UHGV virus genome: UHGV-2031204
DNA from: a virus
Strand: one strand, 5' to 3'
DNA length: 64,000 nucleotides
The notes under the pieces are model-generated. The model made no database searches. It was given only the letters and a program-made list of their open reading frames with translations, and was not told where the DNA came from. Below, in pieces: positions 8,891 to 63,372 of the stretch. Position 1 is the stretch's first letter, and every line of letters begins with the position of its first letter. The position numbers were made by a program, and so were the translations under genes.

Positions 8891-8988
8891 TCTAAAACCT
8901 CGGATTATAAGTCAGGGTTACATAGTAAAGTCTTTTTACAGTTCACCCAAACCTTATGACCGAGACAATTCCATAAAGGTAAAGCTCG

Positions 8989-17583: not shown

Positions 17584-17643
17584 TTTTTACAGTTGGGAAC
17601 AGACTTATGTCTCCCAAGACTGCGTTTAAGTGGAGAAACAATT

Positions 17644-46888: not shown

Positions 46889-48946
46889 TTAGACCTCCGT
46901 ACTGTTGCGACGATAAACTTTGATCGTCGTGTTGAACTGCGACAACAGTACACCGCCTTCAGCTTTAATGTCCAGCGTGATAGAGTAGCCATTGGCTTTA
47001 TCGTCCGCTGTCATATACGCACTCGGGGTAATGTCGGCAATATTATCCAGGCGACCTTCCAAACGCTCGGTGATTTTGTTTTCAATCATTTTCGCGCGTT
47101 CGTCGTCCGTCATACGGCTTTCACCGGACATATCTGCCCAAACCTGATCACTGACACGATAAACGTAAGTCAGGATAAAGTTAAACAGTGCATTGTTCAG
47201 CACTGAACGTTCTTCGCTATAGATGGACTGGATAGCTGGGATGAACAAACGATAGTAGTCGCGGGAACGTGCGGTAACCAGAGACACATCCCAGTCGGAT
47301 GCGTAAATCTCGTTACCTTTCCACGGCATACTCAAATCGTACAGATCTTCGATGATCGTCTCTTCACCACGGCTGAAACGATACGCCGGTTTTGCACGTC
47401 CTTCACCGGAACCGAGATACTTCGAGAAGAAGTTCGCAATGCTATAACACATCGGAACCGGTTTCTTGTAGCTCGAGTTACGGATGAATGCAGACTGGCC
47501 AGTAATCATCCCACGGCACGCCGGGGTACCGTAATAGGACGACTCAGGCACGGACGTAATCATTTCGATCAGCGCTGTCTTCACGTTCTCTTCGGTTTGT
47601 AAGTCATTACGACCTTCGTTATAAACGTGAGTACAGAGTGTCAAGAACGTGTTACGAGAACGGCCAATGAAATTGGTCAGCACTTTCTTGGTATCCATGC
47701 TAAAACCGGAGTCCCAGAAGCAGCCTAACGAATATTTCAGTTCGTTATCGTAACGGACTTTACCGCCGTCCGGGAACAGGCTCATCTCACGACGCACGAG
47801 TTTGTCGTAAGCATCGTTACCCATCGTCCCGTCACTACCGCCCTGCAGATAGTGAATATTAGAAGCAGAAAAGACAACTTTACCCACTTCATCAGATGGG
47901 CTAACTTGCAGACCATCGTACATTTGACCGGTTAAATCCAGACCGCCGAAGATATCGACCATATACGGATCGGTAATCGCTGGTTTCGCATTCTGAATTT
48001 TAGACTGTGCCAGTTTCAGAACAGTTTCCAGGTTTTCACGGTAAATGTAGAACTCTTCGAAAGGACCGTAGTCCGGCAGACCGCCGATGTCTGGCATCGT
48101 CTGACGATAGGCATCTGGAACAACGACTTCGAAGTCCAGTTGAGTAGCCATCGGCTGATAGTATGCATCGGGCTTGAAGCTAACATTGATGCTGCTAAGA
48201 CCTTTAATGGTCTTCCAAATTACCGGCGATGTAACCCCTGCTAAGGTTTCAAACCATTGCAGTGCGTACATACGTCCACCTACGTTGGTCTGATAAGCAG
48301 ACGCGATAGATGGGCTGGATTTTTCGTTCAGCGGAACCAGTTTAAAACCGAAACCGTTGACATCAGCACCCGCATACGGGCCTTTAATGTCGAAGATCGG
48401 ATAAAGCTTTGATTTCGCGCTGGTGGTTTCGTCGGTCATTGTCCCTTCAGTAACCACACCTTTTTTCAGGGTGCTTACATCTTCGACAACTTGCAGACGG
48501 AAAACCACTTTCAAGCCATCAACGTCTTCTTTCTTCTTCGGCTTACCGTTAGTTTCATACTGGATAATGCCGTTCACACGCTCGTATGAAGGAACTTTGG
48601 TTTCGAGGACGTCAGCCACCAGACGGACAGCTGCGACTTTCGCATCGTCCGGCACCAGACGCTGATACATACACTCGTTACCATTGGCATTAAACATCGC
48701 CTGGAAGGGTGTGTTGAACGTCGCGTAATCGCCACGCAGGTCGAACAAATCACGACCAAGCAGAGACAATGCATTATCCCCGGATAACGGGAACGCCTCG
48801 TCGTCTACCCCGCGTGATGCAAAGGTGAAGATCAGCGGCTTATGAATCGGATCACCCGTGGGGGTCCGGACAAGCTCAGGGACAGAGTTATCCTGCCACC
48901 CTTGCTTGTTATTCAATGGCGCGCCGTTTCGTGGAATAAAACTCAT
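46889..48946 (-). CDS. candidate tail sheath protein (major capsid not excluded)
   Basis: 685-aa gene followed by a smaller tube-like gene; no motif confirmation. Confidence 0.4.
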   Translation of the reverse strand: MSFIPRNGAPLNNKQGWQDNSVPELVRTPTGDPIHKPLIFTFASRGVDDEAFPLSGDNALSLLGRDLFDLRGDYATFNTPFQAMFNANGNECMYQRLVPDDAKVAAVRLVADVLETKVPSYERVNGIIQYETNGKPKKKEDVDGLKVVFRLQVVEDVSTLKKGVVTEGTMTDETTSAKSKLYPIFDIKGPYAGADVNGFGFKLVPLNEKSSPSIASAYQTNVGGRMYALQWFETLAGVTSPVIWKTIKGLSSINVSFKPDAYYQPMATQLDFEVVVPDAYRQTMPDIGGLPDYGPFEEFYIYRENLETVLKLAQSKIQNAKPAITDPYMVDIFGGLDLTGQMYDGLQVSPSDEVGKVVFSASNIHYLQGGSDGTMGNDAYDKLVRREMSLFPDGGKVRYDNELKYSLGCFWDSGFSMDTKKVLTNFIGRSRNTFLTLCTHVYNEGRNDLQTEENVKTALIEMITSVPESSYYGTPACRGMITGQSAFIRNSSYKKPVPMCYSIANFFSKYLGSGEGRAKPAYRFSRGEETIIEDLYDLSMPWKGNEIYASDWDVSLVTARSRDYYRLFIPAIQSIYSEERSVLNNALFNFILTYVYRVSDQVWADMSGESRMTDDERAKMIENKITERLEGRLDNIADITPSAYMTADDKANGYSITLDIKAEGGVLLSQFNTTIKVYRRNSTEV

Positions 48947-52446: not shown

Positions 52447-54087
52447 ATGGCCTTAACAACCGACATTATTAATAAGGATCGCGGGTTCCGTGTATGGCGT
52501 CCTGAAGAACTCTATGCGCCGGAACGCCCAACCGGATACGTACCGAACCCGAAAGATCTGATCGTTAACGATATCACCTCCGGTTTCGATATCGTCATAA
52601 GCGTTAACTACGCCAAACCATCGTGGGAAACCGAACCGTGGGGCGGTGTAGGGGTGGCTAATCAAGACGGTCGTCTGAACGGGCACTACCCACTGCGTAG
52701 CGATAAATATCGCGTCTACGTGGATTCTACGAAGCTCCCGGCAACGATGGTGTTAGATAACGCCCTCACCTTTGAAGGACCGGATGTGGACGGGGTGCGC
52801 ATTTTCCGAGGCAGTAAAGTTGACGACAGTGCGGAAATACTCTCCGGCTACTACAAAGACGGTAAATTGAAATACACTTACTTACCGGTCCAGACGATTT
52901 CTGTCGAAGGTGCAGAGCGTGTCGTTAAACAAACGTTACCTGGCGCTTGCTTAGCTGAGGTCGAGAACGGTGAAGAATGTATGTTCGCTGTTTACTCCGA
53001 CGTCGGTAACGTGGTACAAATCGGTCACGCGCACATTATCAAAACGAACCTGGTAATGCCGCAAGAAACACCAGCTCGTACTGTGTTGGGTATTAAGTTA
53101 GTGTCGCCGTTCTTGGTAGACAACGACGGCACCACACTGACGCTGCCGATCAACATGCCAATCGAATCTATACCGCTTTGGTGTGATGTTGTTTACAGCG
53201 ATGGCACAAAACGTCTACCTATCGACCAAGCTCGTGTGAAATTCAACGGATTACGTAACGCAGGTTCACACGACACGTTCTACATCGCTTCTAACTCAGG
53301 CAACACGCTGCCATGCGTACTGAGCTATAAGTTATCCAGAGGTGAAACTTACGGGGGTACCGATGTCGTAGGTGACACCATTGTGAAAAACTATACGGCG
53401 GTAACAGAGCAGGTCGACGGTGCCTACAGCATGAAACTTTTCGTTGTGCCGAGATGGCTGGATGCCACACGCGGTTATCGTCTGGACTTCTTGCTGTATA
53501 ACCTGACACGCGGTAAAGTTTACGATGCAACCGCGCACGTTAACTACACCACGGGCACGACCTTCGATCCGTTACTGATGGGTGTTAAACAACGCCTTAA
53601 CGTTCAGGTCGATATCAGTAAAGTAGACAGTAAATTCCGTGCGTTTATTCAGTCTCAGTCATTCGCTATTACGCTTGTGAACCCAGGTAACGAACTGAAC
53701 TCGAACTTCATTCTGGAATACCTCCCAGACGGTATGAAGTATGGGGAAAACGTGTGGGCGGAATTTAAATACTCCAACGTCAATTATTCTGAAATCGACG
53801 TCAGTAACAAAGTGGCCTCTAAGGCAGAATGGTTGAAGCTGTTGTACGAACCGATTTATCCGTTGTACGACCGCCGTAATGAATCAGAGCCACCTGAACC
53901 AACACACTTCGAAATCCACGTCGGGGGTAAAGTTTACACCTATAGCGTAGATGAGTGGTTGGATAAAAAGGTTATCGACTACCGCGTACCGCTGGACGCT
54001 CCGCTAGTGATTCGTTGGATACGTCGCACACCAACAGATACGTTAAACTTAGCCGCGTCGCCAATGTTGGCGCACCACATCGAATAA
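52447..54087 (+). CDS. hypothetical structural protein
   Basis: 546-aa ORF upstream of the terminase. Confidence 0.55.
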   Translation: MALTTDIINKDRGFRVWRPEELYAPERPTGYVPNPKDLIVNDITSGFDIVISVNYAKPSWETEPWGGVGVANQDGRLNGHYPLRSDKYRVYVDSTKLPATMVLDNALTFEGPDVDGVRIFRGSKVDDSAEILSGYYKDGKLKYTYLPVQTISVEGAERVVKQTLPGACLAEVENGEECMFAVYSDVGNVVQIGHAHIIKTNLVMPQETPARTVLGIKLVSPFLVDNDGTTLTLPINMPIESIPLWCDVVYSDGTKRLPIDQARVKFNGLRNAGSHDTFYIASNSGNTLPCVLSYKLSRGETYGGTDVVGDTIVKNYTAVTEQVDGAYSMKLFVVPRWLDATRGYRLDFLLYNLTRGKVYDATAHVNYTTGTTFDPLLMGVKQRLNVQVDISKVDSKFRAFIQSQSFAITLVNPGNELNSNFILEYLPDGMKYGENVWAEFKYSNVNYSEIDVSNKVASKAEWLKLLYEPIYPLYDRRNESEPPEPTHFEIHVGGKVYTYSVDEWLDKKVIDYRVPLDAPLVIRWIRRTPTDTLNLAASPMLAHHIE

Positions 54088-54097
54088 ATATAACAAG

Positions 54098-54121
54098 CCT
54101 CCTACCCGAAAGGGTAGGAGG
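54098..54121 (+). promoter_or_regulatory. intergenic stem-loop without U-tract, overlapping RBS of terminase gene
   Basis: CCTCCTACCC/GGGTAGGAGG stem, GAAA loop, then GAGGAG and ATG 54134. Confidence 0.4.
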
Positions 54122-54133
54122 TGAGGAGTCTGT

Positions 54134-56242
54134 ATGATACTACGTGAATCGGACTGGCGTTATTATCCAGGCGCTATTGTTGACGATAAAACCACAAACA
54201 AATCGTTTATCAAGTTTGCAAATATCCTAAAAAAGCTGGGTGTAAAGCACTATTATATTCATCTCGCCTTACATAACCCTTTACTGCAAGGGGTCGATCC
54301 TTTTGACGAAAACCTAACGGACGAACAGAAAGCGTACATCGCCATCGAGTGTGCTGAAAACCCTTGGTACTGGTTTCGAGAGTGCGTCAGGGTACCTGCG
54401 GACGGTATGAAATACGGGTCGCCGTTCCGTATCGACCGTGGTAACTTTTCGATGTATTGGATTTTCTTCAACAACATCGACGCCGCCGTCGAATTCCTCC
54501 GTCAGCACGGTAAAACCGTCGGGATGAGCGGATTACTGCTGTGGTTAATTCGGTTTCTGGAAAACTCTCGTACGATTCTTATCACAAAAGGACCGGCACT
54601 GCGTGAAGAAACCATTAACAAACTTAAGCAACTACGTAACGGTCTACCGTCGTACTTGTGGCCAGCACATCCAGACGATCCAGATAACCGCGAAACTTTT
54701 GCGTGTTTAGCCCAGGGTAACAAACTGATTACGGGCATCGGCCAAAACGACCCAGAATCAGCTAACGGTATCGGTCGTGGACTCACCGCTGGTCGTCTGT
54801 TCTCGGACGAAGGACCCTTTACCAAAAACGTACACCACATTCTACCGGCAGCGCTGGCATCCGGTACAGCTGCACGTCGTATTAACGAAGCGGAAGGTGT
54901 TCCTTACGGCAACGTATTCGCAACAACCCCGGGTGACTTAGCGACGGAAGAAGGCAAGTACATGTACGAGCTGATGACGTCAGGGATTATGTGGGATGAG
55001 CGCTATATCGACATTCCAACCCGTAAACAGCTCATTGACATCATCCGTTCTAACTCCACGGCAGAAGTCCCACGTATCATGTTCTACGTGAAGTACAACC
55101 ACCGCCAGCTCGGTACCAGCGATGAGCAATTAGCGGCAATGATTGCGAACGCCAAAGGTACTCCTGACCAGATCCGTCGTGACTTCGGGGGTGAATGGAC
55201 GACCGGTGGCTTGAACAAGCCGTTCTCAGCGGAAGATGCAGATCGTATGAATGCTTCCCGTATGCGTGCTGTGTTTAAAGATATTTCACCACAAAACTAC
55301 GTTACCGACTGGTACTACACCGAAGAGGAGATGATGACGAAGCTCAAAGACCGACACGTCATCGGGTTGGATACCTCTGAGGCTGTGGGTCGAGACGCGA
55401 TCGCCATGTCTATTGTTAACTCTGTGACCGCAGAGTACGCAGGTAAATTAACCGTTAACGAATCTAACGTTATCTCTTTCGCGATTCATTTAGCGGATTT
55501 TATGGTGCGATATCCTAACACGGTACTAATCCTGGAACGGCGGTCTACTGGCTCGTCTGTGGCTGATGCGATTATCCTGCAGTTACAGTCTCGTGTCACG
55601 GACTTACATCGTCGTTTATTTGTGAGAATCACTCAGGACTACTCACGTACGGACGATCTCTACAAAGAGTATCACCGTGGGCCTATTGGTAACGCTGAGA
55701 AGTTCTGGAATAAATTCCGTAAATATATCGGTTTCTCAACCGACCAGGAAAAACGTCGTAAACTGTACGGTGAGGTATTCACCACGGCGTTGCGCTTATC
55801 CGCGGATAAACTCCGTTGCGGAGAACTCATCGACCAGATACTTAACCTCGTGGAGAAAAATGGTCGTATTGACCACAAAGCTTCAGGTCATGACGACCTC
55901 GTGATTTCTTGGTTACTTGCGATGTGGTTATTGCTGCTTGGGAATAACCTGGGGCATTATGAAATCAACAACAGTCGATTGATGATGCGCAATCGTAATT
56001 TAGTCGAAAATCGTGAAGGGGTGGATGAGGAATTACAACTCGAGGAGGAGGCGCGACAGCAGGAACTGATGGGGGAAATTGAGCGTCTTGTGCGAACCAC
56101 AAACGGGTTATTAGACCCGGTTCAAGCAATGGCTGCTCGTAACCGTCTCCAGTCCCTCATTGCTCAACTTAACACTGATACACAAAACGTGGCGTCAATG
56201 GAAAGCTTGAGAGAGCTTATCCAACGCCAGAGGATGAAGTGA
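54134..56242 (+). CDS. terminase large subunit
   Basis: P-loop RQHGKTVG; nuclease-type motifs GLDTSEAVGRDAIA and HKASGHDDLVISWLLAMW. Confidence 0.7.
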   Translation: MILRESDWRYYPGAIVDDKTTNKSFIKFANILKKLGVKHYYIHLALHNPLLQGVDPFDENLTDEQKAYIAIECAENPWYWFRECVRVPADGMKYGSPFRIDRGNFSMYWIFFNNIDAAVEFLRQHGKTVGMSGLLLWLIRFLENSRTILITKGPALREETINKLKQLRNGLPSYLWPAHPDDPDNRETFACLAQGNKLITGIGQNDPESANGIGRGLTAGRLFSDEGPFTKNVHHILPAALASGTAARRINEAEGVPYGNVFATTPGDLATEEGKYMYELMTSGIMWDERYIDIPTRKQLIDIIRSNSTAEVPRIMFYVKYNHRQLGTSDEQLAAMIANAKGTPDQIRRDFGGEWTTGGLNKPFSAEDADRMNASRMRAVFKDISPQNYVTDWYYTEEEMMTKLKDRHVIGLDTSEAVGRDAIAMSIVNSVTAEYAGKLTVNESNVISFAIHLADFMVRYPNTVLILERRSTGSSVADAIILQLQSRVTDLHRRLFVRITQDYSRTDDLYKEYHRGPIGNAEKFWNKFRKYIGFSTDQEKRRKLYGEVFTTALRLSADKLRCGELIDQILNLVEKNGRIDHKASGHDDLVISWLLAMWLLLLGNNLGHYEINNSRLMMRNRNLVENREGVDEELQLEEEARQQELMGEIERLVRTTNGLLDPVQAMAARNRLQSLIAQLNTDTQNVASMESLRELIQRQRMK

Positions 56243-56478
56243 TGGCTCCAATTTACTATTTACTTGTGTTCTTTTCGTGGATAGCGACGTATAAAATGAT
56301 CCGCGAGAGTTACCAAGCGATAAAACAATACGGACGTTCGCAAGGTTTCCCACTACGAAAAACACGGTATGTACAGGCATTTGCAGTATTTGGCCTGATG
56401 GTAGCAGGTTCGTCAGCTACCTATGCGCTAAATATGGTCTACTCTATACACCTCGTGGTAATGTCAGGGCCCCATTGA
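56239..56478 (+). CDS. small membrane protein (two predicted helices)
   Basis: ATG overlaps the terminase stop; hydrophobic segments YYLLVFFSWIA and FAVFGLMVAGSSATYALNMV. Confidence 0.4.
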   Translation: MMAPIYYLLVFFSWIATYKMIRESYQAIKQYGRSQGFPLRKTRYVQAFAVFGLMVAGSSATYALNMVYSIHLVVMSGPH

Positions 56479-56496
56479 ACCCAGCTAAAATAAACT

Positions 56497-56538
56497 AGCC
56501 AGTAACCCTAACGGGTTACTGGCTAACTCTTTTTTATT
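56497..56538. terminator. bidirectional terminator
   Basis: 12-bp stem AGCCAGTAACCC/GGGTTACTGGCT, TAAC loop, T-runs on both strands. Confidence 0.7.
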
Positions 56539-57910
56539 TCTGTAACGACCGGATTAAGAAATATAACAGCAACGCATTACGCAAAGCTGCTAACGCGGAT
56601 TCGTGACGGATGTGTGTTTCCTTCGCCGCCAGTTTCTCAATTCTCGACCGCAAGGATAACACGTACGGGTTCGGTGATTTCGATGCCTGATACAACGCAC
56701 GCATACGCTGCAACACCGTCACCGCATCGTTGAAGTTGATACGGTTGGTAACAATCTCATCAAAAGCGTGTGAGAGTGTATCCTCCATAATGCTATTGAT
56801 TTCATCACGCTTCTTACCGATTGGTAAACTGGCGATATAGGTCAGTAACGTTTTCAGCGCAGCAGGAGATGCTTTGGGCACCATTTCTAGCACCACACGA
56901 GCCAACTCTTCCTTGTACAGATTGTTAATGTCGTAAGACGCATCAAACAGATTCTGTTTTGCAATCTCTAGTGCACCGACTTTATCACGAATCACAGACT
57001 GCCCATCTAACTCGATGCGTGCAGACTGACTAACCACGCGAGTATTCTCACGACGTACACGATCGAGCACCGCGTAGTAGTCTTTCACGGTTTGTTTCGT
57101 ACGTGTATTTAAATCGGTGATATAACGCAGTACCAAGTCGGGAGTATCGAAACGTTTTACGGCGTCGTAGTTCGGGTATTCGGGCGAGCAGAAATACGTT
57201 GCACGTTCTGCCATGTGCAGCCCCCAGTTACCCAAACGACGAATATCGAATTTCATTGAGAGCATCGAATACGCCGCTTCTGCTGCGGGAAGATCAACCG
57301 GTTTCGGAAAGAAGTGATAGTAAATACTCGAGTAGAATTTAAACTGGAGTATCGTCACCAGATCGATGGCTGCAGCGAGGATTTCTTTGTCGCCAAACTT
57401 TGGAATCATCAGGTGCAGCAAATACACGATGGTCAGGTTATACGTATCACCCGCGACCTGCCAATCGGTATTAATCGACTGAGACTCTTTAATCAGTTCC
57501 GACAGATAATCTTCGTCAACGTTAATAACTTCATCGAACAGACGATTACGGTCTGAATCGAAAAAACGGATGCTGTGAACACCGAGGAGGTTCGACCCTA
57601 ACCACTCCACGTTACCTTCACGAGAGAGTATTCCGCTTACGTAGTGGCGCAACTTAGACGCCAATTTGCGATCAATCACGAGTTTATTAAACACGCCGTC
57701 AAACGCTTTACGTAAACGGTCGTCGCGACGGGCTTCGTGTGCAACAGAGAATCCCATCGGGACGTAGCCACCAAAACCGTAGTCGTAGTACAAACCCGAT
57801 GAGGTTTCCGCGCCATCGAAGAACGGATCACGGCCGAACGATTCCTGAGCGACGCGAGTTCCAGCTTTCTGGTAGCAGCCGGATGTAAAATCATAAACCA
57901 GTTCAGCCAT
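56534..57910 (-). CDS. hypothetical protein
   Basis: 458-aa minus-strand ORF. Confidence 0.55.
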   Translation of the reverse strand: MAELVYDFTSGCYQKAGTRVAQESFGRDPFFDGAETSSGLYYDYGFGGYVPMGFSVAHEARRDDRLRKAFDGVFNKLVIDRKLASKLRHYVSGILSREGNVEWLGSNLLGVHSIRFFDSDRNRLFDEVINVDEDYLSELIKESQSINTDWQVAGDTYNLTIVYLLHLMIPKFGDKEILAAAIDLVTILQFKFYSSIYYHFFPKPVDLPAAEAAYSMLSMKFDIRRLGNWGLHMAERATYFCSPEYPNYDAVKRFDTPDLVLRYITDLNTRTKQTVKDYYAVLDRVRRENTRVVSQSARIELDGQSVIRDKVGALEIAKQNLFDASYDINNLYKEELARVVLEMVPKASPAALKTLLTYIASLPIGKKRDEINSIMEDTLSHAFDEIVTNRINFNDAVTVLQRMRALYQASKSPNPYVLSLRSRIEKLAAKETHIRHESALAALRNALLLYFLIRSLQK

Positions 57911-57983
57911 TAGTGAACCTCGAAATAATTACGGATAGATATTATCCTAGTGAGAGTCTTATTCTACCTAAAGGAGTTTTAAA

Positions 57984-59108
57984 ATGAGAAATTACTTACG
58001 TAAACCCGTTTGGCACAGAATGCTGCGCGAAGGTACCATCGACCGAAATCAAAACGTCAAAATGTGGGTTCTTCCACACGGCGTAATTTGTGATTTAGTT
58101 CGTGTCGGTGGTATGGACATTTTGCGCAACGGTACCTACGATGCGGTCAACTCGTTTCTTGCACGCGAATTGGCAGAGGCAGGTTTACATGGCGAAATTC
58201 TGTTTTACACCACACGCGTTATTCCACAAACCCTGTCGAAATGGTTAACGTACTGGTTGTCTGGTGATCCTGACGCATCGGACCCAGAACTCAACTCAGT
58301 AACAATTACAACGTTGGGACAATACCCAACGAAACCGCTACCATTTCAGGTAAACGTAGTAGAGCCGTTAATTGTAAAAGCAGGTGACGTCTTCGACACG
58401 ATTAAAGCTAAATCCAGAAACCAAGCGGTTTCACAGTTCCTCGTAGAAACTGAAAATGAGGTGTTTCGCCTGGAACCCGTCCGTAAAACGGATGCCACGT
58501 TACTGGCAGTCACCGACTACGGTGTGGTGTGCCGTTCTACAGAAGGTCACACTTTCCTGTGTACAATTTTGTCTCGTCGTATACAAGCCCAGTTAGCGCA
58601 CTACAAACTGAGTTTGAACGACATCATCGGTACTACGTTACGCATCGAATACACGATGTACACCGATGGCAACAGGTTGTGTAACTACAAGTCACCTATC
58701 GCGTATCGAGCACTGGCGTTAGACAGTCTCGGTGATTGGGTTTCAACGACATACGATGGGCCTTCACCGTTTAAAACAATCCCGACACAACGGCCTGCGT
58801 TGCTGACGGTTACACGCTGCAATCGTGCTGAAATCTACGAGGAAAATGGGGTGATTTATGGCTTAGAACGTGAGACAGGATTAACGCTGTTTCGTTTCCG
58901 CCGAGGCCCAGAATACGGGCGTTACGCTGCCGTTTTCGAACGGGAAGGGGAACAAGAAACCTGGCTATTCGATTCCGATTTCTCGGTTGACGTTATCGAC
59001 CCTGAAGGGTTTATTGCTTCGGTCGGAAATCAGGTGTTCTACGCCACCGGTTACAGTTTGGTCGATGTGAAACTGTACTATCCGTCAAAAGAACTGACGA
59101 CTCTGTAA
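57984..59108 (+). CDS. hypothetical protein
   Basis: AAAGGAG RBS; strong terminator follows. Confidence 0.55.
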   Translation: MRNYLRKPVWHRMLREGTIDRNQNVKMWVLPHGVICDLVRVGGMDILRNGTYDAVNSFLARELAEAGLHGEILFYTTRVIPQTLSKWLTYWLSGDPDASDPELNSVTITTLGQYPTKPLPFQVNVVEPLIVKAGDVFDTIKAKSRNQAVSQFLVETENEVFRLEPVRKTDATLLAVTDYGVVCRSTEGHTFLCTILSRRIQAQLAHYKLSLNDIIGTTLRIEYTMYTDGNRLCNYKSPIAYRALALDSLGDWVSTTYDGPSPFKTIPTQRPALLTVTRCNRAEIYEENGVIYGLERETGLTLFRFRRGPEYGRYAAVFEREGEQETWLFDSDFSVDVIDPEGFIASVGNQVFYATGYSLVDVKLYYPSKELTTL

Positions 59109-59118
59109 AAAATATTCT

Positions 59119-59156
59119 GGGGAGACTTCGGTCTCCCCCGTTTTTATTTTTTTTTG
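59119..59156 (+). terminator. rho-independent terminator
   Basis: GGGGAGAC/GTCTCCCC stem, TTCG loop, long T-run. Confidence 0.8.
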
Positions 59157-59609
59157 CCCAAAATCAAAAAACGCGATGAGAGCGATTCTAACGCATTTTT
59201 CTTCCAGGTGGTACGTTCGTACCCCTTACCCACGTTTATCTCTCCAGAGAGCTTCCTACGAAGAATTTGAGGGTGTTTTGGTTGTGGGTTTTGAATTTAT
59301 TTTCACTCAACGCCATGAAACCGCGATTTTGTCGTTCGTGCTGTCACGCCAACCCCTATCCCTGGGTGGGACGAAAACCCACCCCATCGTAAAACGCTCT
59401 AAAACGCTTTTTGACGCAAAAATCTTCTCAAGGGGTACACTTGGGTACCCGAACCCCGTTTAATTCGTTACAGCTCGATTGAGAGCGTCTGAGGGGCATT
59501 CCCCTCGACCAGTTCCACCCCACCCTCGGGTCGGCGAACCGGCCGCCGCGACGATCAAAAAAACATTCACGCTTCGCGTACTAGCGGATCAGCTGGATTG
59601 ATCAACTTA

Positions 59610-59940
59610 CTGAATCTTCACACACTGAAGATTCAGGTTGAGTAGTTCTCTAGCTTTGGTTTTTTGATCTTTTAAAATTTTTAATACTCTTCGAGAGACT
59701 TAGTGTCTCTCGAATCGATCTTAAATTTTTAACTCTTTCAAAAATCTGATCTCAAGATCTCTTCCTTATACGCGTGTGCGCACGCACACGTATAGTATAA
59801 TATATTTATTTATAAATATATTATTCCTTTAGGATCAAAATAATAATACCTTTAGGTATTATTTAATTATATATTTTAATATATATTATATATAAATATA
59901 TATAAAACGCGCGCGATCCTTATTATGAGATCTGATCTCG
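59610..59940. repeat. repeat-rich AT-rich intergenic core (candidate origin/regulatory hub)
   Basis: IR 59610-59636 (11-bp arms); direct repeats GATCTTTTAAAATTTTTAATACTCTT 59666-59691 and GATCTTAAATTTTTAACTCTTT 59717-59737 flanking IR 59690-59714; quasi-palindrome 59767-59794; ~90% AT 59795-59907 with IR 59842-59863; CGCGCGCG 59908-59915. Confidence 0.5.
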
Positions 59941-60120
59941 CTATGACCCCCCTGAGGGGGTAGGGATCGGTGAGCGGTATTTTCCAGAAAAAACCGAAAA
60001 TCGTACCCGGGGTAATTCGCCAGGGTAAAATCCCCACCTGGGGGATCGGGTAGGGGTCTACCCCGAACACCTGACCGAGGGGTGTAAAACCCATTCCCCT
60101 TTTTCGAACGTTAAAACCCT

Positions 60121-60760
60121 ATGGTATGTTCGGAGGATTTGCGTGGGATGATTTACAAATCCAACCACGAAGATTTTTCGGAGTTCAGGAGTTTACTGCT
60201 CACAGCTCAAACACGATTTCTGTCTGCGAAGATTCAGCAGAGCTCGAAGCCCCCTGACCGGATGTTGGTTTGGGGGTTGTTTTTTCGAGTGCATGGAATT
60301 TATTTCGCCGTGTACTGGGAAAAACAAAACGTTCAGCCTAACACTGGAGTTTGTTTTACTATGGGGTTTGAAAATCGATTTGCCAATCGAACTTACCCCG
60401 AGGGATTTTTGGAATCCCCAGAGTTCAGGTGCTCGGTACCGTTTCCCCGACTTACGAGTGTTGGGGAGCCCGCGCTATCAGTGACGCGTGGACCACATGA
60501 GAAAATCCGAGGGAACCGTGGCAGCCTCTGGGAGCGACGTTGGCGAAAGGTCCGTAGAACTTACCTGCGGGCAGCCGACGGTGGGATACGCTCCCAGAGG
60601 TGCGGCCAGAATGCGAATTACGACGTTGCGTCGAATGACCCTGCTCCAGGTAGCGCTGGCAGTGTGATGTCCTCTAGCTTGACGGCTCGCAAAGACGAGA
60701 GGGGTGCGTACTCCCGTTGAGAAACGCCGGTACGCAGCTGAATTATTTTTTTTTACAGCG
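60121..60760 (+). ncRNA. candidate structured noncoding RNA (unclassified)
   Basis: GC-rich, no RBS; perfect 12-bp long-range helix 60525-60536/60589-60600; several local hairpins; terminator-like hairpin 60705-60736 plus T-run 60745-60754; the overlapping 199-codon ORF uses CGA/AGG/GGG codons, whereas sampled neighbouring genes read mostly CGT/CGC for Arg. Confidence 0.3.
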
Positions 60761-60802
60761 TTTCCTGTTGGTGTGACACAAACCACGGCAGGAGATTTTA
60801 AT

Positions 60803-61165
60803 ATGGATTCCAAAAACACCACTAACGTGGAATTGGATGTTCAGTACAGGCTCGATGAGTTGGCAGCTCTGTTAAAAGCCCCGGAGGACTGGGGATGCAC
60901 GGAGCCAGCGTTACTTGATTTGATCAAGAGCGTGCGGATTTACCAACCCGTCGAGATTTACATCACGGTAGTTGTGGAAGTTCACGATGGTTATTGCGTG
61001 GAACACATCCCTAGCCCTATTGCGCATTATCCGAGCTATCGAGAGTGTCTCCTGGTAGCCGTTCGTGAAGGCTTGGCTCGTGCGATTCGTGAACATGTTA
61101 CGCGATGCACGAACCCGATGGCAGCTGTTGATCAGGTGGACAGCAATGAGTTAGGAATTCTGTGA
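60803..61165 (+). CDS. hypothetical protein, coupled to HslV-like gene
   Basis: GGCAGGAG RBS before ATG 60803; stop overlaps downstream start. Confidence 0.5.
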   Translation: MDSKNTTNVELDVQYRLDELAALLKAPEDWGCTEPALLDLIKSVRIYQPVEIYITVVVEVHDGYCVEHIPSPIAHYPSYRECLLVAVREGLARAIREHVTRCTNPMAAVDQVDSNELGIL

Positions 61166-61665
61166 TGACCACGATTGTTTTTGACGGAAAGACGTTAGCT
61201 TGCGACGGTCAAGTCACCGTGGAAGAGCGTAGTGCTGCCACGCAATACCGTAAGATCCACACGCCGCCCGAGGGTACGACGTGGAATCTTTTGGGTGAAG
61301 ACGTAAAAGCGTTTGGTTTGGCAGGCGATGTCGCCGCATTGCAATCTGTGCGTCAAGAACTCACGCTTGAACGTTTCGGTGGTATCGAACGGGGTGGGGT
61401 TCGTTTTGAAACGACGTATCCCGAACAGATTGATTTTATCGTACTTGCTGTTTTGACAGACGGGCGCGTTATCGACGCCTCGAAATGCAAAGACAACAAA
61501 TACGCCAGTTACGTGTTTGTAGAGCCACCGTATGCGATAGGCTCAGGTGCACACTATGCCCTGGGTGCGTTAGGCGCAGGCGTTGACGCCCCCACTGCGG
61601 TGGAAGTGGCGAAACGTTACGACCTGTACAGCGGTGGACAAACGCAATCACTTAAGCTGTTTTGA
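61165..61665 (+). CDS. HslV/proteasome-beta-like N-terminal-nucleophile peptidase
   Basis: [16 protein letters not shown] parallels HslV [30 protein letters not shown] parallels [23 protein letters not shown] parallels IAIGSGGPYAQAA. Confidence 0.6.
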   Translation: [166 protein letters not shown]

Positions 61666-61672
61666 TGTATTA

Positions 61673-61748
61673 GGGGGTGTAGCACAATTGGTAGTGCAGC
61701 GGTCTCCAAAACCGAAGGTTGGGAGTTCGAAACTTCCCGCCCCCGCCA
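61673..61748 (+). tRNA. tRNA-Trp (anticodon CCA)
   Basis: Manual cloverleaf: D-stem GCAC/GTGC with G18 G19, anticodon loop CTCCAAA (U33, CCA, A37), T-arm GGGAG-TTCGAAA-CTTCC, acceptor GGGGTG with 1:72 mismatch; 3' end uncertain by a few nt. Confidence 0.75.
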
Positions 61749-61812
61749 GATTTTAGCCACTAAGTTCATTCTCAACACAGAAAACGATATGTGTTATCTG
61801 TGGGAGAAAATT

Positions 61813-62049
61813 ATGAACTTGTATCTAGTAGAAAGAACCGACAGCGTTGGTTGGGATGAATGTTCCGCAATGATTGTTGCAGCCCCTACGGAAGAAGCTG
61901 CATGTGCAATTCTTCCTTGCGAGTCTGGCTGGACTGGTGAGTTGTTATTGGATGGAGATGTGGAAGAGGTTACCCTCAAAGCCACACTCCTCGGTACGAC
62001 ACACTACCCAGAGGGGGAGGTTCTTTACACTGATTACCTATACGGCTAA
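61813..62049 (+). CDS. hypothetical small protein
   Basis: 78-codon ORF starting at ATG 61813 (track ORF begins upstream at 61789). Confidence 0.35.
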   Translation: MNLYLVERTDSVGWDECSAMIVAAPTEEAACAILPCESGWTGELLLDGDVEEVTLKATLLGTTHYPEGEVLYTDYLYG

Positions 62050-62724
62050 AACAGTGGGCTTCGGCCCACTAACCTAATTAGAACAATCGAACAAGAGTCA
62101 CAAACTCGTCAGCCTTCAACTGAGGGTCGGTTGTTCTGATAACTTCTGCTCTTGCTCACGGGTAGAAAGCTCCTTAAAAACGTGTAAACACCTACCGATT
62201 AAGTTCGGACTTACGTTAGGGTCGTGAGACCCTGGTGGTTAGACCACCTAAACGGTTGTACGGTGGGAGGATAAAACCTCCCACCTGCACCCACCAAGAA
62301 TTTAATTATTGGGTATTTCCCCTAAGTGTAACGTGAATACCCTGTAATGTGAATTGAGAGTTACGTGTTAACTCGACGGTACTGGTCGATGATCACCTGT
62401 AAACCTTCATCGTCCCATGTCATGCTGTGTTTGACCAGTACCGAACTTTGTCGCTATGCCTGGTGACGTGGCTACACACCGAGGCTGGGGCTCGACACCC
62501 GTTAGCGACACCCTTTTTGCGTTATTGTCAGTATTCTGAAGCTGTGTTCAGTGACAGTAGCGTTTTTTATTCGCGTTGGCGTTTGTACCATTGCTGCCCT
62601 TGCTGTCATTGCTGCCACTGCCTGCTGCGCCTCAACAGACGTTCAACGCGTCCCATTAACCCACACGTCGGGGTATAGCGACGTACAACAGAACGAGTAG
62701 TAGTAACAGAACGAGGTAACAGAA
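62050..62724 (+). other. structured noncoding leader / intergenic region
   Basis: Hairpins 62053-62070, 62219-62232, 62234-62248, 62262-62285; 11-bp long-range IR 62377-62387/62433-62443; CATTGCTGCC direct repeats near 62589-62620. Confidence 0.4.
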
Positions 62725-63372
62725 ATGCTTACAGTAAAACGCATTATTAACGGTGACCGTGTCATCACTGTGCACGAACGTGTACGTTTAGGTGACAAAA
62801 TGTCCCGTGTTTACAAAGAAGCACTTAAAGTCGCCAATGGCGAAGATAATGAATTGTGTTTTGATAACGCGATTGATTTGCCGAGAAAACCGAAATCGGT
62901 GGGTTATACAGCTTTAACTGATATGTCCGTAGAGGAACAGAAAAGCACCTTAGCCAACCTGCATCCGTTTTTGCACAATGTGTCAGATTGGACCGTTGTC
63001 ATTGGTGGTCGACCTATTCCAGAGGATGTACCACGTGTGGTGATCGTTAACCCGCGTATGCCGTCCTTCGAAGAAAAGAATTCGCCAGTCGACGAAATTT
63101 ATATCCCTGGCAATAATTTCTATTGCCGGTTTTGTGGCTTTACACAGCGTGAAATGACGTATGTGATGCCACCTCAAGAAATCCAATTAGTCCGCGAGTT
63201 GATTAACGAAGATGGTGATACCTTCTATCAGAATCAGCTCCGTAGCGGTAAGCACTCAGTTGACGAGGCTATCGGCGTTTTACTCGTCGATGATGCTTAC
63301 GAATTTTTCTATCCAGGGGATGTGGTTTACATCATGAACAATGAAGGTAAAACCATTGATACCCTGCGATAA
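62725..63372 (+). CDS. hypothetical protein
   Basis: 215-aa ORF; terminator downstream. Confidence 0.5.
   Translation: MLTVKRIINGDRVITVHERVRLGDKMSRVYKEALKVANGEDNELCFDNAIDLPRKPKSVGYTALTDMSVEEQKSTLANLHPFLHNVSDWTVVIGGRPIPEDVPRVVIVNPRMPSFEEKNSPVDEIYIPGNNFYCRFCGFTQREMTYVMPPQEIQLVRELINEDGDTFYQNQLRSGKHSVDEAIGVLLVDDAYEFFYPGDVVYIMNNEGKTIDTLR

Follow-up and report, generated by a model that had tools for sequence, protein, structure and literature searches.

What is the function of about 1.65 kb of phage DNA in which no credible gene can be recognised? This question was raised by a window of 64,000 nucleotides (nt) from the virus genome UHGV-2031204 (the window is the whole stretch of DNA that was analysed), where no protein gene lies at 59109-60802. 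The source of the window is an SPN3US-like jumbo phage of the Chimalliviridae, which are nucleus-forming phages. The original prediction, made from the letters of the window alone, had proposed a replication origin or a packaging or regulatory site at 59157-60120, and all the features that it described could be confirmed at or close to the positions given. We found that the gap is made up of two modules, namely a DNA element with its core at approximately 59545-59940, which we call the hub, and a + strand structured RNA gene at 60120-60745. The RNA gene is separate from the hub and represents a new family, and its ends and expression are predicted from sequence. It may well be at the hub that replication of this SPN3US-like chimallivirus starts, in both directions, so that the hub would be the origin or the main initiation zone. 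For this phage family it is the best origin candidate so far.

The gap does not encode a protein

Only two open reading frames (ORFs) of some size were found in the gap, 59176-59463 (95 amino acids) and 60121-60720 (199 amino acids). In relatives with 91-99% identity both ORFs were broken by 1-nt indels, the shorter one was not conserved in relatives, and the longer one had no Pfam, PHROG or NCBIfam match. Substitutions at the three codon positions numbered 4/2/1 in the 95-amino-acid ORF and 11/9/7 in the 199-amino-acid ORF, compared with 7/1/56 in the flanking real gene. A protein-coding gap was thus ruled out by the indels in close relatives, the lack of codon-position bias and the lack of family matches, and the earlier statement that no credible protein gene occurs over this distance was confirmed. 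The strong terminator that had been noticed ahead of the gap was also found, as a terminator-like hairpin with a T run (59119-59150) that is present on both strands. It closes the upstream gene 57984-59108, and an equivalent GC hairpin with a T run stands ahead of the gap in all relatives.

The hub is a conserved DNA element

From left to right, the hub consists of a left arm, a left box, an AT core and a right box (Table 1). The left arm contains two perfect inverted repeats, 59610-59636 (11-bp arms, loop CACAC) and 59690-59714 (10-bp arms, loop TTAGT), both of which had been predicted; across genera the stem sequences of the palindromes differ, and their positions and loops are similar. The quasi-palindrome ATACGCGTGTGCGCACGCACACGTAT, also noticed before, lies at 59769-59794. 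AT content peaks in the AT core (59796-59907), at 91% over 100 nt, which is the highest value of the window, so the description of a tract of roughly 90% AT was correct, but CGCGCGCG (59908-59915), which had been described as bounding this tract, borders it on the right only, and its left border is an alternating CG/CA tract. Thirteen GATC sites were counted in 59553-60047, while the mean of the window was 1.5 per 500 nt and the runner-up count was 6. The clustering of GATC that had been reported is therefore real, and it is conserved, with 7-12 sites in the hub of about 450 nt in 8/8 lineages. The right box occurs once in the window, and a scan of IMG/VR with it gave chance matches only, besides the already known contigs of this phage group.

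When 59545-59945 was folded as single-stranded DNA, its energy was -66.3 kcal/mol compared with -30 ± 3.2 kcal/mol for dinucleotide shuffles (z = -11.3). The folding energy of the hub palindromes on the + strand minus that on the - strand was on average -1.1 kcal/mol, with mixed signs. Because folding showed no strand asymmetry, the palindromes are DNA-level palindromes. RNAalifold on the left half of the gap gave 9 pairs with zero compensatory changes, and together with the missing strand asymmetry this ruled out an RNA in the left half of the hub.

Alignments were made from 8 to 13 lineages, which belong to Seoulvirus, Erskinevirus, Wellingtonvirus, Machinavirus and uncultivated clades. At least five genera shared the hub architecture and its position, and the order of the elements was fixed: the GTACACTTGGGT hairpin, the CGATCA box with a small GC hairpin, the palindromes, the left box, the AT core and the right box. 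The CGATC..A of the left-arm box was invariant in 13 lineages, the TTC.TTATACGCG of the left box was conserved in 8-13 lineages, and a run of 18-23 nt of alternating purines and pyrimidines was present in 7/8 lineages with variable sequence. In all lineages the AT core had a central palindrome with a G+C centre. The right box was the most conserved element of the hub, and its (A)CGCGCG(T)GATCCTTATTAnGAG was nearly invariant in 8 lineages.

Identity was then calculated against two relatives, L005 (the closest full-length relative, 89% at the amino-acid level) and L036. It was 82-100% over 59550-59950, compared with about 53% at the synonymous sites of the neighbouring gene. By element, it was 82-90% in the left arm apart from one indel block, 96-98% in the left box and 98-100% at the aligned positions of the AT core. 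The spacer 59151-59544 had 52-72% identity, which is near the value of the synonymous sites. Since 59150-59550 is near neutral and 59550-59950 is 82-100% identical, the constrained DNA element was placed at approximately 59545-59940, which is narrower on the left than the originally proposed interval and ends sooner on the right. To the right of it, the hairpins at 59940-60115 had 78-100% identity in L005 and were deleted in L036 (0-42% over 59950-60100), and other genera had different GC hairpins at this position. The GGGT(G)TAAAAYCC-type repeats in GC hairpins thus exist as described, but because of the deletion in L036 the segment 59950-60100 is dispensable. The pair of direct repeats of about 20 bp at 59666 and 59717 was also present, but its copies differ by indels (seen by eye; a gapless repeat search did not list the pair), and the 59666 copy was absent in L005. 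So the inverted repeats, the GATC cluster and the AT core were conserved in relatives, but both families of direct repeats were not.

Measured in one uniform way, the AT core ranged from about 50 to 145 nt between lineages and was 112 nt in the window. In close relatives, the core was about 180 nt in L005 (7800-7975), and more than 100 nt of 100% AT was found in the replicon of Enterobacter ludwigii (87,141-87,290). This difference between close relatives suggests slippage or recombination inside the core.

The hub was unique in 3/3 complete genomes, where both AT content (over 100 nt) and GATC density reached their maximum in it. The AT content of these 100 nt was 94% in SPN3US, 100% in the E. 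ludwigii replicon of 222 kb and 91% in phiEaH2, and the GATC count per 500 nt in the hub, against the genome mean, was 10 versus 1.0, 12 versus 1.0 and 9 versus 0.7, respectively. These results bear on the idea that the hub has no function and is hypervariable, AT- and palindrome-rich junk or the decayed scar of a mobile element that also breaks assemblies. The variable size of the AT core, the coming and going of direct repeats and the deletion of 59950-60100 in one relative would agree with this idea, but the 96-100% identity of the boxes and aligned core against about 53% at nearby synonymous sites, and an element order preserved over at least five genera, make it extremely improbable.

Strand composition switches at the hub

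In SPN3US approximately 80% of the genes are on one strand, so the raw cumulative GC skew climbed monotonically and was uninformative. Because of this gene bias, we used an orientation-corrected analysis, in which GC skew in 2-kb bins was regressed on net gene orientation plus a square-wave term for bidirectional replication, and the position of the origin was scanned. In the 222,441-bp genome of the window's clade the best origin was at 86-89 kb, and the AT core of the hub is at 87.14-87.29 kb. The F value was 44, compared with 15.5 for the 95th percentile of block permutations, and 0/300 permutations were as high. With two free breakpoints, the G-rich arm extended from 86 kb to 200 kb, which means 114 kb or 51% of the genome. 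In SPN3US the best origin was at 0-6 kb (hub at 0.15 kb) with a second breakpoint at 114 kb, which was not significant (P about 0.10), and in phiEaH2 it was at 160-166 kb (hub at 165 kb; P about 0.43).

When the hub was fixed beforehand as the origin, genes of both orientations in the right half were more G-rich on the + strand in 3/3 genomes, and 10/12 of these tests were significant, third codon positions included. Third-position AT skew had the same direction in 6/6 comparisons, one of them significant. The step of raw GC skew at the hub was from -0.033 to +0.113 in the window and from -0.012 to +0.084 in the 222-kb genome. Replication-associated deamination bias gives the leading strand an excess of G and T. 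Since the excess of G and T on the + strand lies to the right of the hub, as for a rightward leading strand, the hub fits an origin and not a terminus. The skew analysis suggested by the original prediction thus showed a switch of orientation-corrected GC skew at the hub, which was significant in the 222-kb genome and weaker in SPN3US and phiEaH2.

How the hub may work as an origin

These phages have genes for a Dam methylase of their own, for a DnaB-family ATPase and for an RNase H-family protein, and a family B DNA polymerase is encoded on the right side of the hub at a distance of approximately 10 kb. If the hub is an origin, the AT core of 112 nt and about 91% AT would serve as the DNA-unwinding element. 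It sits between two conserved G+C boxes, of which the left one, with its quasi-palindrome of alternating purines and pyrimidines, could take up or release superhelical stress. The flanking palindromes may be binding or extrusion sites for an initiator, which is probably phage-encoded, and the GATC cluster could tie firing to adenine methylation by phage Dam and/or host Dam and SeqA. A methylation-gated element, of the kind known from oriC and from the origin and pac site of P1, is plausible because the phages carry their own Dam. The Chimalliviridae replicate within a proteinaceous phage nucleus, and because replication presumably occurs inside this nucleus a phage-encoded initiator is likelier. 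To the right of the hub the + strand would be the leading strand of a rightward fork, and to the left it would be the lagging strand of a leftward fork, which would give the skew switch. The hub would then provide a conserved target of about 400 nt for the replication start of nucleus-forming jumbo phages, and this cis element could be required for engineering or rebooting such genomes.

Several points weigh against an origin. No DnaA box (TTWTNCACA) was found in 53382-62969, and the five in the whole window are below chance expectation. A conserved iteron array was not found, as the direct repeats are two-copy only, and the flanking proteins had no recognisable initiator domain in Pfam, NCBIfam or PDB. 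The right box matched the 13-mers of E. coli oriC no better than shuffles did (P 0.03-0.25) and could be aligned with them in 5/8 lineages (the oriC sequence used for the comparison is present in 5425/5426 E. coli genomes). The whole-genome skew scan was significant in 1/3 genomes, SPN3US and phiEaH2 being the other two. These three genomes are syntenic and not independent, so a shared difference of composition due to gene content could contribute to the switch; both genome halves hold a mixture of virion and non-virion genes. DNA of chimalliviruses might also start mainly by recombination in the style of late T4, in which case a fixed origin would not be needed, and a GATC cluster around a central region would also fit a pac site like that of P1. 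As for the origin architecture that had been predicted, the AT core, the palindromes and the boxes are conserved, but there is no iteron array, the GC hairpins are dispensable and the second half of the gap is an RNA gene.

In the literature searched, no paper combined "SPN3US" with "origin of replication", a jumbo-phage review of 2026 did not contain the term, and neither an origin nor a pac site nor a non-coding RNA was reported for SPN3US-like phages. Nothing comparable to the hub is described for this phage family in that literature.

The readings of the hub as an origin, a pac site, a transcriptional element or another cis element, or as DNA without function, are not all mutually exclusive. 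Control of transcription is a case in point. The AT core and the boxes might be a strong promoter or UP-like element and a boundary for the RNA and the downstream operon, with no role in replication. A strong terminator stands on one side of the hub and a block of + strand genes and RNA genes on the other, motifs with TATG stand before the RNA, and TTTTACAG...(T)ATG stands before the next gene in all lineages. Promoters are commonly activated by AT-rich tracts. We nevertheless consider it rather unlikely that transcription explains the hub, as the boxes are single-copy in each genome and do not form a repeated promoter consensus. In L036 the spacer of about 175 nt that separates the right box from the RNA is deleted, and it varies from genus to genus, so the spacing is not kept. 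A promoter needs neither 400 nt of palindromes nor 13 GATC sites, and transcription alone would not give a skew asymmetry of half the genome in both gene orientations. Transcription-activated origins exist, so a promoter role would be compatible with the hub being an origin.

Assemblies break at the hub, and a pac site is unlikely

Assembly ends were found at the hub in SPN3US, SPFM2, SPFM16, SPFM17, SPFM22, Proteus phage 7, EC001, Lh1B, JN03, SEGD1 and four IMG/VR contigs; in all the named phages except SPN3US these ends fall inside the AT core. One of the contigs (220,786 bp) stops at the left box and begins just past the right box, and the three others stop there. The hub accounts for the breaking of public genomes and metagenomic contigs of the group at this place. 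Because at least 10 assemblies cross the hub and the break points scatter, the breaks probably reflect difficulty of sequencing and assembly and not a fixed end, and the many assemblies that read through rule out that the genome physically ends at a fixed place in the AT core. Most likely the breaks came from poor coverage or tangled graphs in a segment that is AT-rich (90-100%), palindromic and variable in length, although a sub-population of the ends may stem from pac initiation. The SPN3US reference JN641803.1 (L003 7185 / L021 1) was found not to be seamless; about 60 nt within the hub are missing between its last and its first base, and SPLA5c has them (gtttaactcgctctaaaatcccccttaggggataatttaatctaattctcaaaatttc).

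The breaks could also be understood by a pac site, at which the terminase would recognise methylated GATC-rich arms and make the first headful cut in or near the AT core, as in P1. Numerous independent assemblies terminate in or beside the AT core, and the hub is 2.9 kb downstream of the large terminase gene (54134-56242). As in P1 pac, clustered Dam sites flank a centre of similar size (about 110 nt here, about 100 bp in P1), the phage has its own Dam, and headful packaging is presumed. In related Erwinia phages headful packaging was assumed solely from the homology of the terminase to that of phiKZ, and base 1 was placed by alignment (PMC6256631). However, the hub is crossed by the assemblies of the window, L005, SPLA5c, phiEaH2, SPFM3, SPFM4, SPFM11, SPFM13, SPFM19 and SPFM21 and of two circular replicons of 222 kb, and the breaks are spread over about 300 nt at low-complexity sequence of 90-100% AT or at strong hairpins. 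In P1, hexamers TGATCA/G are repeated on either side of the cleavage region, inside the terminase gene pacA. The GATC sites that flank the AT core stand in differing contexts, and only one or two of them match this hexamer (TGATCA at 59599-59604), so the repeated hexamer consensus of P1 pac is lacking. The hub is outside the terminase genes, neither within nor beside that of the small subunit and two genes away from that of the large subunit, and a pac function leaves the skew switch unexplained. A pac site is therefore unlikely.

Circular replicons and other cis functions

The clade of the window also occurs in two complete bacterial assemblies, one of Enterobacter ludwigii and one of E. coli, in each as a circular "plasmid" of 222 kb. 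These two are about 87% identical to the window in the RNA region. They are deposited as NZ_CP134650.1 (E. ludwigii, 222,441 bp) and NZ_CP173450.1 (E. coli 98232, 221,873 bp), with the loci L036-L042 in our analysis. Both are non-mobilizable and come from unrelated sources, a gull cloaca in France and human urine in Egypt, and PGAP annotation leaves the entire gap of 2 kb blank in them. The circular replicons suggest a carrier state, pseudolysogeny or a co-cultured phage.

The occurrence as circular "plasmids" raises the possibility that the hub is another single-copy cis element, for example a site of recombination or resolution (like that of a telomere resolvase), of genome anchoring or partition inside the phage nucleus, or of maintenance of a persisting episome. 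The quasi-palindrome of alternating purines and pyrimidines at the left box is found across lineages, and in phiEaH2 and Asesino (L001/L009) a stretch of 15 contiguous nt (CATTATACGCGCGTA) is common to the left box and the telRL core of N15. In N15, however, telRL is a perfect dyad of 56 bp centred on TACGCGCGTA and comes with a protelomerase gene. The box of the hub is a quasi-palindrome and not a full dyad, its 15-nt identity is limited to two lineages, and neither the window nor SPN3US yielded a TelN homologue (best tblastn E 0.17). A protelomerase target was therefore ruled out, the 15-nt match lacking both the enzyme and the full dyad. As assemblies read through the hub, no partition genes were recognised and none of these roles predicts the skew switch, such a cis element is very unlikely.

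The RNA gene and other features of the gap

The other features of the gap are listed together with the elements of the hub in Table 1.

Table 1 Features of the gene-free gap (positions in the window)
Feature	Position	Strand	Description
Intrinsic-terminator-like hairpin	59119-59150	both	GGGGAGAC-TTCG-GTCTCCCC, then T run; 8-bp stem with 6 GC pairs
Weakly constrained spacer	59151-59544		has TAAAACGCTCTAAAACGC and conserved hairpin-like GGGGTACACTTGGGTACCC (59432-59450)
Hub, left arm	59545-59755		box CGACGATCAAAAAAACATTCACGCTTCGCGT (59547-59579), seven GATC, two perfect palindromes, AT-rich palindromic stretches
Hub, left box	59756-59795		GATCTCTTCCTTATA, then alternating purine/pyrimidine quasi-palindrome CGCGTGTGCGCACGCACACGTATAG
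Hub, AT core	59796-59907		112 nt, about 91% AT; palindromes TCCTTTAGGA (59825-59834) and AATAATACCTTTAGGTATTATT (59842-59863)
Hub, right box	59908-59939		CGCGCGCG-ATCCTTATTATGAGATCTGATCTC; three GATC sites; CGCGCG-GATCCTTATTAnGAGATC
G+C-rich hairpins, variable spacer	59940-60115		GGGTAAAAYCC-type loops at 60010, 60023, 60080 and 60110; two more GATC
Structured non-coding RNA gene	60120-60745	+	covariation; 5' end predicted near TATG motifs 60120-60129
RNA helix H1	60270-74/60677-81	+	covariation
RNA helix H2	60278-88/60316-26	+	covariation
RNA helix H3	60292-95/60309-12	+	covariation
RNA helix H4	60428-30/60515-17	+	covariation
RNA helix H5	60432-36/60507-11	+	covariation
RNA helix H6	60519-22/60605-08	+	covariation
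RNA helix H7	60524-31/60594-601	+	covariation
RNA helix H8	60686-89/60696-99	+	covariation
RNA helix H9	60702-18/60723-39	+	covariation; GNRA loop GAGA
T run, TTTTACAG motif, ribosome-binding region	60746-60802	+	precedes first downstream gene, ATG at 60803

The consensus structure of the RNA over 60237-60743 had 55 pairs in nine helices, and 25 of the pairs showed compensatory changes. Paired cells amounted to 96.9%, compared with 37-48% when the partners were slid by one to three columns, and the covariation score was reached by 0/500 column shuffles. Several G-U pairs were invariant or common in the consensus. The fold of the + strand was on average 31 kcal/mol more stable than that of the - strand and was the more stable one in 13/13 lineages. 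Nucleotide identity of the RNA to L005 was 93.5%, while the flanking genes had 79% and 72%. The covariation, the stability of the + strand fold and this identity relative to the flanks argue strongly for a + strand RNA gene at 60120-60745. The region had no codon-position bias, and a relative with 98.8% identity had a frame-breaking indel in it.

The size of the RNA varies from about 420 nt in Huxley to about 620 nt in the window. Its invariant blocks are CCTAACACT, ATTCAGGT, CCGTGGCAGC, GAACTTACCT, CGTTGCGTCG and CGGCTCGnnAAGACGAGAGGGG, and the 3' domain is capped by a GNRA loop. A scan of the window and seven relatives with Rfam 15, which covered group I and group II introns, RNase P, tmRNA, 6S, GOLLD, ROOL, HEARO and other families, gave nothing at the gathering score and nothing consistent at E up to 5-10. 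A search of species-representative genomes with the RNA motif gave chance matches only, in unrelated G+C-rich genomes, and the RNA is confined to SPN3US-like Chimalliviridae as far as searched. In Kwan (L007 2960-3469), Wellington (L028) and L015, a gene for an HNH homing endonuclease lies within the variable peripheral part of the RNA, and it is absent there in L017 and L029.

To the left of the hub, the GTACACTTGGGT hairpin element of the spacer was nearly invariant in 13 lineages, and apart from this single hairpin no consensus RNA structure was found in 59151-59544. To the right of the RNA, TTTACAG or TTTACGG followed 13-16 nt later by (T)ATG-like bases was conserved in relatives. The combination TTTTACAG-N14-(T)TATG/GTGTG was also found in intergenic DNA upstream of + strand genes at 8934-8958, 17585-17609 and 60751-60777. 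A motif related to TTTTACAG...(T)ATG precedes the RNA in relatives and is a candidate phage promoter consensus. The enrichment of TTTTACAG...TATG in the window was no greater than chance.

Phage group and neighbouring genes

Seoulvirus is currently classified in the Chimalliviridae. Among phage records, no close match to the window was found at the DNA level, and IMG/VR contigs of 221-225 kb include relatives with 89-99% amino-acid identity. The protein of the gene to the left of the gap (57984-59108, + strand) was found in 61 phage records, all of SPN3US-like jumbo phages, and its identity is 62% to the homologue of Erwinia phage phiEaH2 and 55% to that of Salmonella phage SPN3US. Across at least five genera with the same order of the hub, this flanking protein is 48-62% identical. 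Its homologue is labelled "putative DNA ligase" in Proteus phage 7 and MET_P1_082_240, a label for which Pfam, NCBIfam and PDB sequences gave no support. PHROG matches near the gap included the large terminase (54134-56242), a tail sheath protein (46889-48946, - strand) and virion proteins. Searches of the flanking proteins against Pfam, PHROGs, NCBIfam and PDB sequences were uninformative except for the terminase and an HslV-like peptidase.

The position of the gap was constant in every relative examined: a gp263-like gene precedes it, in some cases together with one or two additional small genes, and genes for an HslV-like peptidase and tRNA-Trp follow on its right. The downstream operon encodes a protein of 120 amino acids, the HslV-like peptidase and tRNAs, so that the RNA gene stands just upstream of the peptidase gene and tRNA-Trp. 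The tRNA genes on the right side of the hub differ in number, with a single one, tRNA-Trp (61673-61748), in the window, two in SPN3US and SNUABM29, and nine consecutive ones in the contig L022 (44-1372). The syntenic tRNA of the E. coli replicon (L037 7519-7593) was called tRNA-Ile by PGAP. Neither a gene nor a tRNA was called in 62050-62725 of the window (about 675 nt).

Comparison with known systems

The hub was compared with enterobacterial oriC and origins of the P1 oriR type. Like these, it has a single-copy segment of extreme AT content between conserved boxes and lies at a switch of GC skew. GATC is locally 6- to 12-fold enriched in it, and the phages infect Dam+ hosts and carry a Dam gene themselves. 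The right box sequence GATCCTTATTAnGAGATC resembles the 13-mer GATCTCTTATTAG-GATC of oriC, a likeness that is statistically not significant. Unlike oriC, the hub has neither DnaA boxes nor iterons, and its core is at least 112 nt of nearly pure AT with palindromes in place of three 13-mers (GATCTnTTnTTTT). As these phages presumably copy their DNA inside the phage nucleus with enzymes of their own, host DnaA is unlikely to be the initiator.

With T4 oriF and oriG, the primary origin of T7 and RNA II of ColE1, the gap shares an AT-rich element beside transcription signals and a highly structured transcript (about 620 nt), and the phage encodes a protein of the RNase H family. In those systems the transcript enters or ends at the point of unwinding, whereas the RNA described here appears to start approximately 210 nt to the right of the AT core and to run away from it. 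No promoter reading into the AT core was identified, a sigma-70 scan remained at chance level, and no sequence similarity of the hub to the T4, T7 and ColE1 origins was found. We think it quite unlikely that the hub and the RNA (about 620 nt) work together as one replication module, in which a DnaA-independent origin gated by phage Dam methylation would work with a dedicated replication RNA, either a pre-primer processed by the RNase H-family protein or an RNA for origin licensing or copy control. If this were true, the Chimalliviridae would have gained their first defined origin and their first replication RNA.

For the RNA itself, GOLLD and ROOL are the systems to compare. It differs from both in its sequence blocks and helices, and no Rfam model matched it at E up to 10. 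Like GOLLD and ROOL, it is large (420-650 nt in the group), elaborately folded, encoded by phages and located upstream of a tRNA gene or cluster, and it is an undescribed addition to the few large RNAs known from phages.

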